Shown piece by piece: positions 1 through 61,688 of a stretch of DNA of 64,000 bases; within the stretch, counting starts at the first letter, position 1; the number at the start of each line of letters is the position of its first letter. The translations under genes and the position numbers were made by a program. This DNA comes from an uncultured Gammaproteobacteria bacterium (lineage in GTDB: Bacteria > Patescibacteriota > Patescibacteriia > JAHIZJ01): assembly GCA_964594455.1 (NCBI GenBank), contig CAZQLY010000006.1:8629-72628 (forward strand), in the 5' to 3' direction. The notes beneath the pieces were generated by a model. The model made no database searches, was not told the origin of the DNA, and was given only the letters and a program-made list of their open reading frames with translations.

Positions 1-248
1 GCGAACGCGGTGGCTGTCTGAGTTCAAGATCAGCACAGAAGATATTTGATCGCGCATTGCATAAGGCGGGTATCAGCAAGAAGGCGACTTTTCACAGCTT
101 GAGACACAGCTTTGCCACTCATCTGCTGGAAAACGGCGTTGATATACGCTATGTTCAGGAATTGCTGGGTCATAACAGTATTAGAACCACGCAGATGTAC
201 ACGCGGATAACGAATCCAGGATTGAAAAGTATAACAAGCCCGCTTTAA
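1..248 (+). CDS. Tyrosine recombinase / phage-integrase family, C-terminal fragment (5' end lies outside the window)
   Basis: Frame open to the window edge. C-terminal catalytic motif [37 protein letters not shown] carries the conserved R, H-x-x-R and terminal Tyr typical of XerC/XerD/integrase family. Confidence 0.75.
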
Positions 249-9576: not shown

Positions 9577-10644
9577 ATGAAAACACTTAATGATACGCAA
9601 AAAATTTCCAAGCTGGATAAAAGCAAGATGTTTCGATCCATTGAAGAATTACCTCTTCAATGTGAGCAAGCCTGGACTGAAATAAAGCAGTTAAAAGTGC
9701 CTTCAAGATACAAAAAATACTCTCATATTGTGGTAAACGGTATGGGTGGCTCAGGTTTAGGGGCCCACACCGCCCTTTCTTTGTTTAGAAAGCAGCTCAA
9801 GATGCCATTTGAAATAACGCATAGCTATCAAATACCGAAAGCAGTCGGACCGAATACGCTTTATTTTGCTGTTAGTTATTCCGGGAACACTGAGGAAATA
9901 ATTTCGGCTTACCACAAAGCTAAAAAGCGTGGAGCCAAGATAGTAATTATTGCCAAAGGGGGTCAATTATCTCAATTGGCAAAGAAGGACAAACAGCTAG
10001 CTTACATATTTGAAGAAAAATATAATACTTGCCAGCAACCCAGAATGGGCGTTGGCTACAATCTGATATCTTTACTTGGACTTCTGAAAAAGTTAAAGCT
10101 GATTAACATTACTGACAGACAATTCGAATCAGCGCTGTTGGCTTGCCGTCGGGTCAATACTAAAAATAAAATAACGGTAAAAAATGGCCTGGCTAAAAAT
10201 ATCGCCAGTAAACTGCATGGTCACGTGCCAATCGTGGTGGCTTCTGAGTTTTTGGAGGGCAATGCCCATATCTTGTCCAATCAGATAAATGAAAACGGAA
10301 AGAATTTTGCGACCTACTTTACAATTCCAGAATTAAACCATCATTTATTGGAGGGGATGGGTAATCCAGCCGGAAAGACCGGAAACCTGTACTTTTCGTT
10401 TTTCACCTCGAACCTATACAACCCCAGAAACCAAAAGAGGTATGATATTACCAGAAAGATTTTGAACAAATATAAAGTAAAGTCGTTCACTTATAAACTT
10501 AAGGCCAAATCTGAATTAGCCCAATCGCTGGAAATGTTGGCCTTAGGCAGCTATATTGGATATTACCTTGCGATGTTAAATAATATTGATCCTTCACCAA
10601 TACCCTGGGTTGATTATTTCAAGGCTCAGCTTAAAAAGAGCTAG
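9577..10644 (+). CDS. SIS-domain sugar isomerase, bifunctional phosphoglucose/phosphomannose isomerase family
   Basis: SIS-like GMGGSGLG and YFAVSYSGNTEE motifs, 355 aa. Confidence 0.6.
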   Translation: MKTLNDTQKISKLDKSKMFRSIEELPLQCEQAWTEIKQLKVPSRYKKYSHIVVNGMGGSGLGAHTALSLFRKQLKMPFEITHSYQIPKAVGPNTLYFAVSYSGNTEEIISAYHKAKKRGAKIVIIAKGGQLSQLAKKDKQLAYIFEEKYNTCQQPRMGVGYNLISLLGLLKKLKLINITDRQFESALLACRRVNTKNKITVKNGLAKNIASKLHGHVPIVVASEFLEGNAHILSNQINENGKNFATYFTIPELNHHLLEGMGNPAGKTGNLYFSFFTSNLYNPRNQKRYDITRKILNKYKVKSFTYKLKAKSELAQSLEMLALGSYIGYYLAMLNNIDPSPIPWVDYFKAQLKKS

Positions 10645-10654
10645 GACAGTAAAC

Positions 10655-11563
10655 ATGAATCTTTTTGGAGCAGTGCAAAGGATAAAGCGATATCTTGTGG
10701 AAGATCGTCGTTATCGACGAGCTTTTTATTTTGTCTACTTTATTGTTTTAGTTGTCTTCTGGATAGTTGATGGGGGCCAGTATTCAAATGACATGATTTG
10801 GTTATGGCTGCTGGCAATTTTAATCTTCCTGCCCATGAAGGGATTTATGAAGGACTGGTGGCCGCTTCTGTTAACCCCTTTTGCCTATCGAGCCATGCAT
10901 GGTTTTACAGACTTATTAAACGAAAATGTTAACATTACTAATATTATTAGCTGGGAGAGAGGATTATTTGGCAACATTCCTACAATAATTTTGCAGGATT
11001 GGCTGCATTTGAGTTCTGAATTGCATTGGTATGACTTTATGCTTTCACTTTTTTATAGTTCATTTTATTTGCTGCCGATAGCAGCAGCCTTGATTCTATG
11101 GTTTAAAAAAAGGGAAGTTTTTCATATATTTGCTGATGGCTTTATCTTGATGACGCTGGCTGGTTATGCTACTTATGTTCTATTTCCAGCCATGCCGCCC
11201 TGGTTAGCCAGTCAAGGAGGATATCTGCCAGAAATCCCCAGGCTTTATGCTCAGGCCAGCCAAGCTATATTTAATATAGACCTGGCAGCTACTTATGCGT
11301 CTATGAAGGCTAATTTAGTAGCAGCCATGCCATCCCTTCATGCAGCTTGGCCGTTTTTTATCTTCCTATGTTTAGCTTTGGCTTTTCGTTGGAAATCTTT
11401 ATGGTTTGCCATCTTTCCTCTGGCAATTTGGTTCGGGATAGTATACTTAGGGGAACACTACGTGGTAGATGCTATAGCCGGAATAATATACGCCAGTTTA
11501 GCATTTATTATTTCAAAGTATTTATTTCAAAAAAAGACTAATGAAGATGAATTCGCGAGCTAG
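10655..11563 (+). CDS. PAP2-superfamily membrane phosphatase-like protein
   Basis: Multiple TM helices. PSLHAAW and GEHYVVDAIAG fit the PAP2 PSGH and SRx5Hx3D motifs. Internal Met start chosen to avoid overlap (track ORF starts at 10586). Confidence 0.55.
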   Translation: MNLFGAVQRIKRYLVEDRRYRRAFYFVYFIVLVVFWIVDGGQYSNDMIWLWLLAILIFLPMKGFMKDWWPLLLTPFAYRAMHGFTDLLNENVNITNIISWERGLFGNIPTIILQDWLHLSSELHWYDFMLSLFYSSFYLLPIAAALILWFKKREVFHIFADGFILMTLAGYATYVLFPAMPPWLASQGGYLPEIPRLYAQASQAIFNIDLAATYASMKANLVAAMPSLHAAWPFFIFLCLALAFRWKSLWFAIFPLAIWFGIVYLGEHYVVDAIAGIIYASLAFIISKYLFQKKTNEDEFAS

Positions 11564-20674: not shown

Positions 20675-21298
20675 ATGAGTAGGAAGATTGACGTTGATCT
20701 GCGGGACGGTCTGGCTATCTACAGCCGCTTTGGTCAGGTTATCAGAGCGTTGGTGGACGGTCTCAAGAAGCGCGGCGGTACTCTCGACGATCTCTGGAAG
20801 GTTTTCAGGTCACAGGAAGCCCTGAACCAGATTCTGGACATTCTCAGATCGGTTGACATCAACCTGATCTCTCTGCGCATCAACTGGTCGGACGAGCCCT
20901 GGAATATCGTCACGCGGAGCGTGCTGAACAACGCGGTGGCCGGCAACTTCGTTAATATCCCGGATGGCGAGTATCTAGAAGGTGTATCGGAACATCGGTA
21001 TATGCTGGTCGATCCACCGAAGCACCCGTTGCCGTTATCCGATCTCATTGATTGGTGTCAAATGAACAGTTATGTTCCGGCTACAGCGCTGGAGCTGTTC
21101 AATCTCGTTCTCCAGAATGAGACTATTGAAGAACGTTTTCGTGGCTGGAAGATCCTGGCGATTGTTGCCCATGGGACCGGCACAGATTACTACGGCAAGT
21201 GTCCCTATGTCTGCTTTGGCGATCGCTGGACCGTCGGTTATCATGATACCACGGCCAGGTCGACAACCCCGCCCAAGATCCTAGTTCGAGTCTCCTAG
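20675..21298 (+). CDS. Hypothetical protein (207 aa) in a GC-rich island, no recognisable domain
   Basis: GC about 55-58 % against an about 40 % background. SD GAGGAGG 10 nt upstream of ATG. Hairpin terminator downstream. Several shadow ORFs overlap. Confidence 0.55.
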   Translation: MSRKIDVDLRDGLAIYSRFGQVIRALVDGLKKRGGTLDDLWKVFRSQEALNQILDILRSVDINLISLRINWSDEPWNIVTRSVLNNAVAGNFVNIPDGEYLEGVSEHRYMLVDPPKHPLPLSDLIDWCQMNSYVPATALELFNLVLQNETIEERFRGWKILAIVAHGTGTDYYGKCPYVCFGDRWTVGYHDTTARSTTPPKILVRVS

Positions 21299-58888: not shown

Positions 58889-59140
58889 ATGAAGCTTCAA
58901 TTGGGGCAAGTTGTGAATTTGTACAAGCTAAAGAAGCCGGGCTCAAATGAGATGGATATGTTTCCGCTTTCCCCGGGCATCCATGAGTTTGAGGAGGTAC
59001 CCAATCCGAGTGGGGGAACTGGTGGGATGCCCTGGCTGGTCCTAAAATCGGATCAGCTGTGCGGGATGGCCAAGGTGGCCCTTCTCAACAAGCCGGGCGT
59101 GACCGAGATTCAGGAGGAGGCACCGGCTGAGGGGAAGTAG
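58889..59140 (+). CDS. Hypothetical protein (83 aa) in a GC-rich island
   Basis: SD GAGGGAGG 6 nt before ATG. GC-rich. Terminator immediately after. Confidence 0.5.
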   Translation: MKLQLGQVVNLYKLKKPGSNEMDMFPLSPGIHEFEEVPNPSGGTGGMPWLVLKSDQLCGMAKVALLNKPGVTEIQEEAPAEGK

Positions 59141-59515: not shown

Positions 59516-60340
59516 TTATTTGAGGTATTGATCAACAAGTGCCTCGGTGGCTTCAATGTCAGGTACCCAGTAGTAAAGATTAGCGTCGAACTCGGGCGTG
59601 TAGATATAGTCTCCTTGACCGGGAATAAAGTCGTTATAAGTATTGGCTAGATCAAACCTGCCCCAACGTCTTGTATAAGCAGCCAGACCAAATTTAAAGG
59701 CGGCTAGTTTACTGTATTTCAGCCGAGTCTGAGAATGGTCTTGAAAAAAGCTGTAAAGATTTTTAGCTTCTGCCATGTTAGTTACTTTGTGACCTAATTC
59801 CAGGAAAATCTCTCTTTGATCTTGGGTCCGGGCAAAGTCGCCGCCAGCTCTATAGCGATCACGTACCACCTTCAAAGCGGCTTCACCATCCAGATGACCG
59901 TCTTCAGTATCAACGCCACCTAGCTCATCAACCAGGTCTTTGAAGCTTTCAAATGTGAATTCGACTGTGGCGTGGATTTTTATATCCAGAAAATCCTCCA
60001 CAGTTTCTTTGGTCAGATCAACGCTTCCCAGAATATCGTTTTCCCGCTCACCCAAGGCATAAGCATGAGTTATTTTCTGCATACCAAAATCTGCCATTTC
60101 AACCTTAGTGTCTCGAGGAATCGTTATTAAGCTTAGAGGTTGGTTGGGAGATTTCGGAACAGAAAACACCATGAGAACATCGGAACGAGCTTGTTCGGTC
60201 TCGCGCTGGTCGGATCCTATTATCAGTACGTTGTATTTGCTGGGAGCGGTGAAATAAAACCAAGCGAAAATAACAAGAATAGTTATTATTAACAGCAGGA
60301 CGATTAAAATGACTATTTTTGCTGGTTTGGGTATAAGCAC
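59516..60340 (-). CDS. LytR-CpsA-Psr (LCP) family cell-envelope phosphotransferase
   Basis: N-terminal TM helix. LCP core LIIGSDQRE...SDVLMV...ITIPRDT...LGGVD. Confidence 0.8.
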   Translation of the reverse strand: MLIPKPAKIVILIVLLLIITILVIFAWFYFTAPSKYNVLIIGSDQRETEQARSDVLMVFSVPKSPNQPLSLITIPRDTKVEMADFGMQKITHAYALGERENDILGSVDLTKETVEDFLDIKIHATVEFTFESFKDLVDELGGVDTEDGHLDGEAALKVVRDRYRAGGDFARTQDQREIFLELGHKVTNMAEAKNLYSFFQDHSQTRLKYSKLAAFKFGLAAYTRRWGRFDLANTYNDFIPGQGDYIYTPEFDANLYYWVPDIEATEALVDQYLK

Positions 60341-60343
60341 TCG

Positions 60344-60754
60344 TTAGTCTCCAATTACTGTAATAGTAATTTTACGTTTAGGTCTGGGGCCATCAAATTC
60401 TGCCAGAAAAATATTTTGCCAAGTACCAAGCTGAATTTGGCCTCTAGTGACAACATAGGACTGATTTTGCCCAATCACTCCTGACAGTAAATGAGCGGAC
60501 GCATTATTATCAATTCGGTCATGTTCAAAAGGACCGTCGTGTTCAATTGTCTTAAAAAGGTTAATAAAATCATTTCTCAAACCCGATTCATTTTCATTAC
60601 TTAAGATCGAAGCTGTAGAATGAGCGACCGAAACGTTGCACAAACCAATCCATATTTTTGCAACATTAACAACTTTGACTACTGAATCAGTAATATCAAT
60701 AAGTTCCCTTTGGGAGCTGGTAGACAACACTAAGTTTTTTTGGAAACTGGCCAT
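60344..60754 (-). CDS. YjbQ/UPF0047 family protein (secondary thiamine-phosphate synthase-like)
   Basis: LGTWQNIFLAEFDGPRPKRKITITVIGD C-terminal family signature, 136 aa. Confidence 0.75.
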   Translation of the reverse strand: MASFQKNLVLSTSSQRELIDITDSVVKVVNVAKIWIGLCNVSVAHSTASILSNENESGLRNDFINLFKTIEHDGPFEHDRIDNNASAHLLSGVIGQNQSYVVTRGQIQLGTWQNIFLAEFDGPRPKRKITITVIGD

Positions 60755-60856
60755 TTGATCCTTATAAGAATATCGTGATTATTATACTGGTTTGTCGATT
60801 GTTTGAGAAGTGTTTTGTTATTAGTAACCCGCCTCCGGTCAGCAACACCCCTCATC

Positions 60857-60881
60857 GTCATGCCGGACCGGGATCCGGCAT
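60857..60881. repeat. GC-rich palindromic element, copy B (the outer stem only)
   Basis: GTCATGCCGGA-CCGGGA-TCCGGCATC. Same GTCATGCCG(A/G)A terminus as copy A, inside a GC-rich patch at 60827-60895. Confidence 0.5.
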
Positions 60882-60976
60882 CTCAAATATCCGCCTAAGT
60901 TATTTACGGAGACTAAAGATTACGTAATATTGTTATGATTCATACTTTTAGTCCCTCTCAAATAATACCTCTAGGT

Positions 60977-61011
60977 AAATAAAAATGCGCCGATCTATAG
61001 AAGATCGGCGC
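60977..61011 (-). terminator. Rho-independent terminator of the GC-rich secreted-protein gene (10-bp stem GCGCCGATCT / AGATCGGCGC)
   Basis: Stem 60987-61011. Minus-strand T-run is the complement of AAATAAAAAT. Confidence 0.55.
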
Positions 61012-61027
61012 GGACCGTGGAGTATTG

Positions 61028-61543
61028 CTAGCAGCGCATGACGGTCCGGAGTACCCGGGTGACCTCGGCGACATCGTTGGCCGTCCTCGCGCTCGACTGG
61101 GCCGCATTGTTGACCGTGCAGCAATCGCGCGCATTCACCTGGATCCTTCCCGAGTTGTTGGCGACATCGTAGTTCTTGGCGATGAGGGCCGCGCTATTGA
61201 CCGCGTCGTCGATGTAGCAGCCGGAGCGCGCGTTCGCCTCGATCTTGACTTGGTGAACCGCGCACATGGTCTCGTGGGCGCAGGTCCGTCCGCTGATTTC
61301 TTCGTAATTGAGATTCTCGATCCTCGTCTGGGCCGCGTCGAAACGGAAATCGGCCGCCATGATCGGGCTGGCCTTGTTGGCGATCGCCTCGACGTTGCTG
61401 TTCTCCACGACTTGCTCGTTCAGCATCGCGATCTGCGGGGTCGTGGCGAGCTCCGCCTTCTCGACCGCCATCGCGCTTCCGGAAATGAACAGGATCGCCA
61501 GAACGGCGATCAGTGGAACAAGGGGCCAGAGTCTTCTCATCAT
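61028..61543 (-). CDS. Hypothetical secreted Cys-containing protein (171 aa) in a very GC-rich island
   Basis: GC about 62-65 %. Perfect SD AAGGAGG 4-7 nt before ATGATG. Signal peptide MMRRLWPLVPLIAVLAILFISGSAMA/VEK. Six Cys. Own terminator. The two plus-strand ORFs and one minus-strand ORF overlapping this island are taken as shadows. Confidence 0.6.
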   Translation of the reverse strand: MMRRLWPLVPLIAVLAILFISGSAMAVEKAELATTPQIAMLNEQVVENSNVEAIANKASPIMAADFRFDAAQTRIENLNYEEISGRTCAHETMCAVHQVKIEANARSGCYIDDAVNSAALIAKNYDVANNSGRIQVNARDCCTVNNAAQSSARTANDVAEVTRVLRTVMRC

Positions 61544-61608
61544 CGTTCCTCCTTGAGTTGGAGAGACAACCAGCGCATGTGTCTACCACCGTTGTACCAC
61601 GAAAGCAT

Positions 61609-61635
61609 AAAAAAACAGCCTTCGAAATTAGGCTA
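61609..61635 (-). terminator. Hairpin plus T7 terminator downstream of xseB
   Basis: AGCCT...AGGCT stem. The minus strand reads ...AGGCTGTTTTTTT. Confidence 0.4.
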
Positions 61636-61688
61636 ACATAAAAACATAAACATAAATTAGGCAAGTCCTAAACTTTTTTATGAGTATT

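Follow-up and report, generated by a model that had tools for sequence, protein, structure and literature searches.

A GC-rich orphan gene next to xseB in an uncultured Patescibacterium, encoding a variable and predicted exported protein of narrow distribution

What is encoded by the most GC-rich segment of a 64-kb stretch of an AT-rich Patescibacteria genome, how did it come to lie there, and what might its product do? The question arises from the window, the whole stretch of 64,000 nucleotides that was analysed, in which the 500-nt bin 61001-61500 has a GC content of 0.62, compared with 0.534 for the next bin and a mean of 0.427. The original prediction had singled out this segment as the highest in GC of the window, which the bins confirm, and had proposed for it a recently acquired secreted effector, bacteriocin or immunity protein. 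The deviation belongs to a single minus-strand ORF of 171 codons, which has the most extreme GC3 of any ORF of at least 70 aa in the window; its GC1/GC2/GC3 are 0.56/0.44/0.85, versus a GC3 of 0.30-0.41 in the flanking genes. The GC bias is even along the whole gene, and the boundaries of the deviant composition and codon usage fall at the gene ends, as they do in genomic islets.

The ORF lies between yjbQ and xseB and is accompanied by its own translation and termination signals:

61028..61543, minus strand: coding sequence of the 171-aa orphan protein, from the ORF list (stop codon 61028-61030)
61548..61554, minus strand: Shine-Dalgarno sequence AAGGAGG, read from the sequence
61555..61608, minus strand: 5' leader, fairly GC-rich and mostly conserved with the related locus L001
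61609..61635, minus strand: weak terminator-like hairpin with T-run, 3' of xseB (6 pairs, 3 GC)
60977..61011, minus strand: intrinsic terminator of the 171-aa gene (GCGCCGATCT-tctat-AGATCGGCGC and T-run)

On the minus strand the Shine-Dalgarno sequence precedes the first ATG by 4 nt and the second (61538-61540), which is the start used by homologues, by 7 nt; CAAGGAGG is kept upstream of each homologue. The terminator-like hairpin of the gene (61011-60987, minus strand; 10 pairs, 7 GC, T-run) has a fold z-score of -4.85, and a hairpin of the same type is located downstream of the gene in L001, L012 and L015. The weak xseB hairpin itself (61635-61616, minus strand) forms the upstream edge of the GC-rich segment and has equivalents 3' of xseB in L001, L004 and L015. 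Together, the 171-aa gene, leader and terminator make up an island of approximately 620 bp. No consensus sigma-70 promoter was detected in the leader 61555..61608 or elsewhere ahead of the gene. The neighbours were identified by Pfam as YjbQ (UPF0047, E = 3e-30) and XseB (Exonuc_VII_S, E = 1.4e-16), with XseA and an LCP (LytR) protein further along in the window. The placement of the gene between yjbQ and xseB, with a Shine-Dalgarno sequence and a terminator of its own, was therefore correctly predicted.

The minus-strand 171-aa ORF is a genuine protein-coding gene. Strong 3-nt periodicity and a bias towards synonymous substitutions at the conserved ends (dN/dS 0.19-0.55) indicate that this strand is translated. 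The reading frame is preserved in three full-length homologues, all length differences among the four alleles (about ten indels) are in frame, and the pattern of high GC3 (0.85, versus a GC2 of 0.44, in the window allele) is repeated in every homologue. Frames other than the coding one gather stops in the homologues; an open frame by itself is weak evidence in DNA of 61% GC.

The gene has a narrow distribution. Word-indexed searches of 5.8 billion protein clusters yielded only three full-length relatives, all on metagenome contigs of related Patescibacteria: P0001 (134 aa; 55% identity in the BLASTP local alignment, or 67-69% over aligned residues with a 37-residue gap left out), P0002 (170 aa, 37-43% identity depending on the alignment) and P0006 (146 aa, 33-38% identity, likewise alignment-dependent). 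An exhaustive HMMER search of 1.84 billion representatives added nothing credible to these three, there was no match among species-representative genomes, viral contigs, phages or plasmids (the last two searched by tblastn), and a scan of metagenome contigs matched only two JAEAM* contigs. Of the other candidates, P0003 and P0004 were rejected as low-complexity or repeat matches, and P0005 as a match made mainly through the signal peptide, in an unrelated context.

The locus is conserved. The gene order is xseA-xseB-gene-LytR in L001 and xseA-xseB-gene-orf75-orf45-yjbQ in L015, L016 and L017, and L012 has gene-terminator-LytR on a contig that begins too near the gene to show its upstream side; thus, the gene is directly 3' of xseB in two of the three homologue loci, the third offering no upstream view. 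In L005 (70% XseA identity), xseB, yjbQ and LytR are contiguous and the gene is absent, as it is from the more distant relatives L006, L008 and L010. The L005 lineage is higher in GC, at about 0.53. A survey of related genomes, which the original prediction had proposed, thus reveals a presence/absence polymorphism between conserved flanks, with the gene present in the window, L001, L012 and L015, as expected of an islet. An assembly chimera is ruled out by the recurrence of the same junctions in five assemblies that different projects produced. Four or more diverged lineages carry the gene at this one locus, which implies either acquisition before they split or spread among them, and the proposal of recent acquisition holds as far as the composition is foreign to the genome, but not as an event confined to this genome. 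The best matches all fall within the clade and no homologue was found outside it, so no taxonomic donor can be named, and it is the composition that points to a high-GC source.

Several of the related loci have peculiarities of their own. In L004, the closest relative by xseA (75% XseA identity), the contig ends 46 nt into a signal-peptide ORF (2122-2167; MKSSLLLFLLVPLIL…) that follows xseB, with a perfect TTGACA-17-TATACT promoter and an L012-like leader upstream; this cut-off ORF is probably a fifth member of the family, and the assembly break may fall at the variable gene. In the P0006 allele (L015 905-935), the ATG proximal to the Shine-Dalgarno sequence opens MRKTF followed by TGA, located at the Trp codon of the MRKLWPL of the homologues, and the annotated ORF restarts at an internal ATG 3 nt later that has no Shine-Dalgarno sequence. 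This early TGA is identical in three independent assemblies (L015, L016 and L017) and could be a nonsense mutation with reinitiation, the mark of an impaired allele, or a TGA that is read through. After the island in L015 there is an orphan 75-aa ORF (1631-1858, rich in Q/R/W/P and with a raised GC content of 0.53), which a 45-aa ORF separates from yjbQ; neither of the two ORFs was found in the window or is common to the other loci.

The 171-aa protein begins with a putative export signal:

61466..61543, minus strand: predicted Sec signal peptide, aa 1-26 (MMRRLWPLVPLIAVLAILFISGSAMA followed by VEK), by inspection

The N-terminus consists of MMRR, LWPLVPLIAVLAILFISGS and AMA before VEK, that is, a charged n-region, a hydrophobic h-region and A-x-A at positions -3/-1, and by inspection the protein has the sequence features of a Sec/signal peptidase I substrate, in keeping with the signal peptide and AxA site of the original prediction. 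There is no lipobox on inspection (no L-x-x-C and no Cys at +1). All four proteins share the LVPLIAV core, and three of them A-x-A; P0001 has AMV in place of the latter and an alternative site between SGS and A. Signal peptidase I probably cleaves the predicted precursor after AMA, although an uncleaved signal-anchor is possible because the h-region is long (approximately 20-25 residues).

The cysteines that gave the protein its first description, as a six-Cys protein with three Cys pairs, are a property of the window allele. It has six (residues 88, 94, 109, 141, 142 and 171), but P0001 has three, P0002 two and P0006 none; Cys142 is the only one shared, and one of the four proteins lacks it, so that no alignment column holds Cys throughout. 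The family cannot be defined by cysteines, and the original prediction, which had named a lack of homologues with a conserved Cys pattern as its refutation, fails in this part. The segment N-x-x-A-[IL]-I-A-[KN], also put forward as a repeat, does occur twice, loosely, but the homologues do not keep it. The repeat that is supported in the window protein is a module of approximately 30 aa, KIEANARSGCYIDDAV... (aa 100-128) and RIQVNARDCCTVNNAA... (aa 133-159), with a self-alignment score of 48 compared with 27.9 +/- 5.4 for 100 shuffles (41 compared with 27.2 +/- 4.4 in P0002). The two copies and the variable middle of the gene are placed as follows:

61231..61410, minus strand: variable middle, essentially non-homologous to the L001 allele
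61160..61246, minus strand: module copy 1, aa 100-128 (KIEANARSGCYIDDAVNSAALIAKNYDVA)
61067..61147, minus strand: module copy 2, aa 133-159, in the conserved C-terminal region (RIQVNARDCCTVNNAAQSSARTANDVA)

Two copies of the module are present in the window protein and P0002 and one in P0001 and P0006, and this difference in copy number explains much of the length variation among alleles. The KIEANAR motif of module copy 1 is also found in P0002 and P0006. The variable middle contains a 37-codon length difference and three of the six Cys residues. The conserved parts are the signal peptide, an N-terminal [TN]PQI segment, the module in the form [KR]-I-[EQ]-[AV]-[NT]-A-R, and a C-terminal tail of the form R-x-x-[LMV]-R-x; the last 50 codons have 93% DNA identity to L001. 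Ala, Asn, Val, Glu and Thr are the abundant residues of the mature protein.

The gene evolves rapidly and as a mosaic. All allele pairs have an overall dN/dS of 0.5-0.7, and in the comparison with P0001 the value is 0.19 for the last 50 codons and approximately 0.5 for the first 53. The flanking genes lie well below these values: between the window and L001, LytR has a dN/dS of approximately 0.09 (0.109/1.154), and dN is low for xseB (0.07) and xseA (0.21), the synonymous sites of both being saturated. Among codons for identical residues, 32-38% differ between distant alleles of the island gene, versus 52% expected at saturation; by the same measure xseB, with 54-62% versus an expected 55%, is fully saturated. 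The synonymous sites of the island are thus below saturation, and the island may be younger than the split of its hosts, or these sites may be constrained.

Between the window and L001 the pS of flanking genes is 0.59-0.91, but dS at the ends of the island is only 0.19-0.25, and these ends belong to a longer stretch of high similarity:

60060..61545, no strand: high-identity tract, 87-98% DNA identity to L001, with flanks of 65-80% (sliding window, blastn)

The tract (approximately 1.5 kb) covers the C-terminus encoded by the island, the terminator, the intergenic region and the first 280 nt or so of the AT-rich LytR gene, and is broken by the variable middle (61231-61410) and by an indel of yjbQ. 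It is the signature of recent homologous exchange between two lineages at a mosaic locus. Constraint on the island only was considered as the cause of the low dS at its ends and rejected, since the tract runs on into LytR; recent recombination is the better explanation for this pair.

Next to the island, yjbQ (60344-60754 in the window) is precisely absent from L001 (approximately 10620-10673) and L012, which retain the TATAAT promoter-like region upstream of it; its presence in L005, L015 and the window indicates a lineage-specific deletion adjoining the island. Between the island terminator and the yjbQ promoter there is a GC-rich intergenic element of approximately 75 nt (…GGCGGATATTTGAGATGCCGGATCCCGGTCCGGCATGACGATGAGGGGTGTTGCTGACCGGAGGCGGGTTA…; 60826-60900, corresponding to L001 10527-10600) that has a copy of about 94% identity in L001 and is missing from L012 and L015. 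It was rejected as an RNA or an ORF: it has no Rfam match and folds no better than shuffled sequences, and a 1-nt indel breaks the ORF.

The account that seems reasonably likely is that the locus encodes a laterally acquired, lineage-restricted, variable protein that is predicted to be exported. A small clade of AT-rich Patescibacteria (CPR), which carries the gene directly 3' of xseAB, would have received it from a high-GC source. Its precursor of approximately 170 aa would be directed to export by the Sec signal peptide, and either cleavage after AMA would release a mature protein of approximately 145 aa or the protein would be tethered at the cell surface; the predicted mature layout is the [TN]PQI segment, the variable middle, one or two modules of approximately 30 aa and the C-terminal tail. 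The gene evolves fast under weak constraint, with changes in module copy number, and homologous recombination by way of the flanks, which are conserved, passes its alleles from one related lineage to another. Members of the CPR/Patescibacteria are believed to live on other cells to which they attach, with surface and secreted proteins as a likely interface. Judging from sequence features, the protein most likely acts outside the cell or on its surface, as a variable factor involved in contact with the environment or, these bacteria being presumed episymbionts, with their host cell; the mature protein is possibly retained at the surface and weakly structured or repeat-based. A protein that is lineage-restricted, fast-evolving, recombining and predicted to be exported is a reasonable candidate for a host-interface factor. 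The locus is an orphan gene of unrecognised function and not a new system.

Compositionally atypical single-gene islets that carry lineage-specific ORFan secreted proteins have the same sharp break in GC content and codon usage at the gene boundaries, the same absence from a sister lineage with otherwise identical synteny, and the same combination of an own Shine-Dalgarno sequence and terminator with no homologues beyond a narrow clade. The island described here differs in having no mobility gene, tRNA or flanking direct repeats (only short repeats at chance level) and no identifiable donor. It also differs in that its high GC3 is kept in four divergent alleles, which acquisition followed by amelioration does not predict. 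Every allele has a GC content of 0.61 and a GC3 of 0.79-0.85 (0.79-0.84 in the homologues) between flanks of GC3 0.27-0.48, and G+C accounts for 80-88% of the four-fold degenerate sites across these alleles (88% in the window allele) versus 36-47% in host genes. These values are held in spite of only 37-43% protein identity and, for distant allele pairs, a Nei-Gojobori pS of 0.50-0.58; by contrast, the flanks have host composition and are synonymously saturated.

The only truly odd feature of the locus is that a GC3 of approximately 0.8 persists across such divergent alleles while the genomes are AT-rich. It is conceivable, if unlikely, that the high GC3 is actively maintained, through selection that acts at the nucleotide or mRNA level or through a recombination hot spot where gene conversion is GC-biased, or else that alleles are repeatedly re-imported from an unsampled high-GC partner, such as the bacterium that hosts the episymbionts. 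If re-import were true, the gene would be a marker of ongoing gene flow from host to epibiont. In any case, the locus is a small and clean test case for amelioration versus selection versus biased gene conversion.

The same rate of evolution that suggests a variable protein could also be read as decay, a dN/dS of 0.5-0.7 being equally expected of a weakly constrained and of a decaying gene. The island might then be a remnant of foreign DNA with a functionless product, its frame open mainly because GC-rich DNA has few stops; the middle that is non-homologous between alleles, the early TGA of P0006, and the failure to predict a fold or detect a promoter are consistent with this. The frame has, however, stayed open at full length in four lineages through some ten in-frame indels as other frames gathered stops, the Shine-Dalgarno sequence, signal peptide, C-terminal module and terminator are all conserved, and the C-terminus has a dN/dS of 0.19. 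The small genomes of CPR bacteria usually lose DNA that serves no purpose. A decaying remnant is accordingly a rather improbable explanation.

Still less probable is the reading of the original prediction, in which this genome recently gained a secreted, disulfide-rich protein that acts as a bacteriocin, effector or immunity factor. The signal peptide, small size and foreign composition, together with the six Cys residues of the window allele, would fit such a protein, and orphan status is compatible with a fast-evolving protein of biological conflict, but the Cys residues are not conserved and the gene is not unique to this genome. Moreover, none of the four members has a significant match in Pfam, NCBIfam, PHROGs, PADLOC or PDB: the PADLOC defence models returned 0 families, and similarity to bacteriocin, toxin or immunity families was absent from the remaining four databases. 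Around the gene stand xseA, xseB, yjbQ and LytR; no immunity, ABC-transporter or other transporter, export, processing or toxin gene is linked to it, and no partner gene common to all loci was found. With no family match, no adjacent partner gene and no homologue outside the clade, a role of this kind is not supported. Structure prediction, which had been suggested as a check, gave AlphaFold2 models with pLDDT of 35 (full-length) and 34 (mature) from 4-sequence alignments, which have no usable fold and lend no structural support to any function.

It is very unlikely that the gene is the target of a diversity-generating retroelement (DGR) or an integron-type cassette: DGRs are common among CPR bacteria, and a variable middle with conserved ends in a compact, precisely bounded unit of ORF and hairpin would be explained, but the unit has no flanking direct repeats, the 64-kb window contains no template-repeat-like copy or paralogue of any part of the gene, there is no reverse transcriptase or integrase among the L001 neighbours, and the variability takes the form of indels, module copy number and replacement rather than adenine-specific substitution. 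Equally slight is the chance that the true product is the plus-strand 203-aa ORF (61025-61636) or a GC-rich structured RNA, since this long antisense ORF, although open in the window, is broken in all three homologues (longest open stretches of 118, 156 and 106 codons), lacks a Pfam match and has a GC3 of 0.56 versus 0.85 in the minus-strand frame, and since the island region, despite GC-rich islands in AT-rich genomes often being RNA genes, contains no Rfam family or tRNA and has the periodicity and synonymous-biased changes of minus-strand coding. The original prediction had set translation of the plus-strand ORF against itself; the possibility as a whole is close to refuted, and the plus-strand ORF is a shadow of the coding frame.

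For the favoured reading, a variable protein predicted to be exported, the nearest described analogue in CPR is a hypervariable gene in a Gracilibacteria genome that encodes a very large secreted repeat protein with short PTD repeats (PMC6851277). That protein varies within one population, which its authors interpret as a trait under pressure to diversify, and they note repeat sequence in common with a putative host organism (PMC6851277). Both genes have a signal peptide, internal repeats and extreme local variation, but the protein described here is only about 150 aa long with one or two modules of approximately 30 aa, it varies between lineages, and no sequence relationship with the Gracilibacteria protein (PMC6851277) was detected. 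In composition only, the family also resembles functional amyloids and surface coats (curli CsgA, FapC and chaplins), which are small, Sec-exported proteins with imperfect repeats rich in N/A/Q/T and few aromatic residues. It differs from them in several respects: there are just one or two repeats, genes for accessory secretion or nucleator proteins are lacking, the four members have no Curlin_rpt, Fap or Chaplin match (Pfam scan, E <= 5), and the AlphaFold2 models (pLDDT 34-35) contain no beta-solenoid.

Elsewhere in the window, an ORF fragment (57-248, plus strand) resembles the catalytic C-terminus of a tyrosine recombinase (…GH…TTQMYTRI). It is immediately followed, at 281-620, by another GC-rich patch, whose GC content reaches 0.62; both strands of this patch carry overlapping ORFs, and it has no match to Pfam, to Rfam or to a tRNA. 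The whole window (1-64000) contains no tRNA gene and no Rfam family at the gathering threshold. Two other ORFs, 58889-59140 and 20675-21298 (both plus strand), have raised GC3 (0.69 and 0.64, respectively) and no Pfam match; the former has a homologue in the same neighbourhood of L005 (7774-8082) and is thus a conserved gene of the clade and not a recent import.
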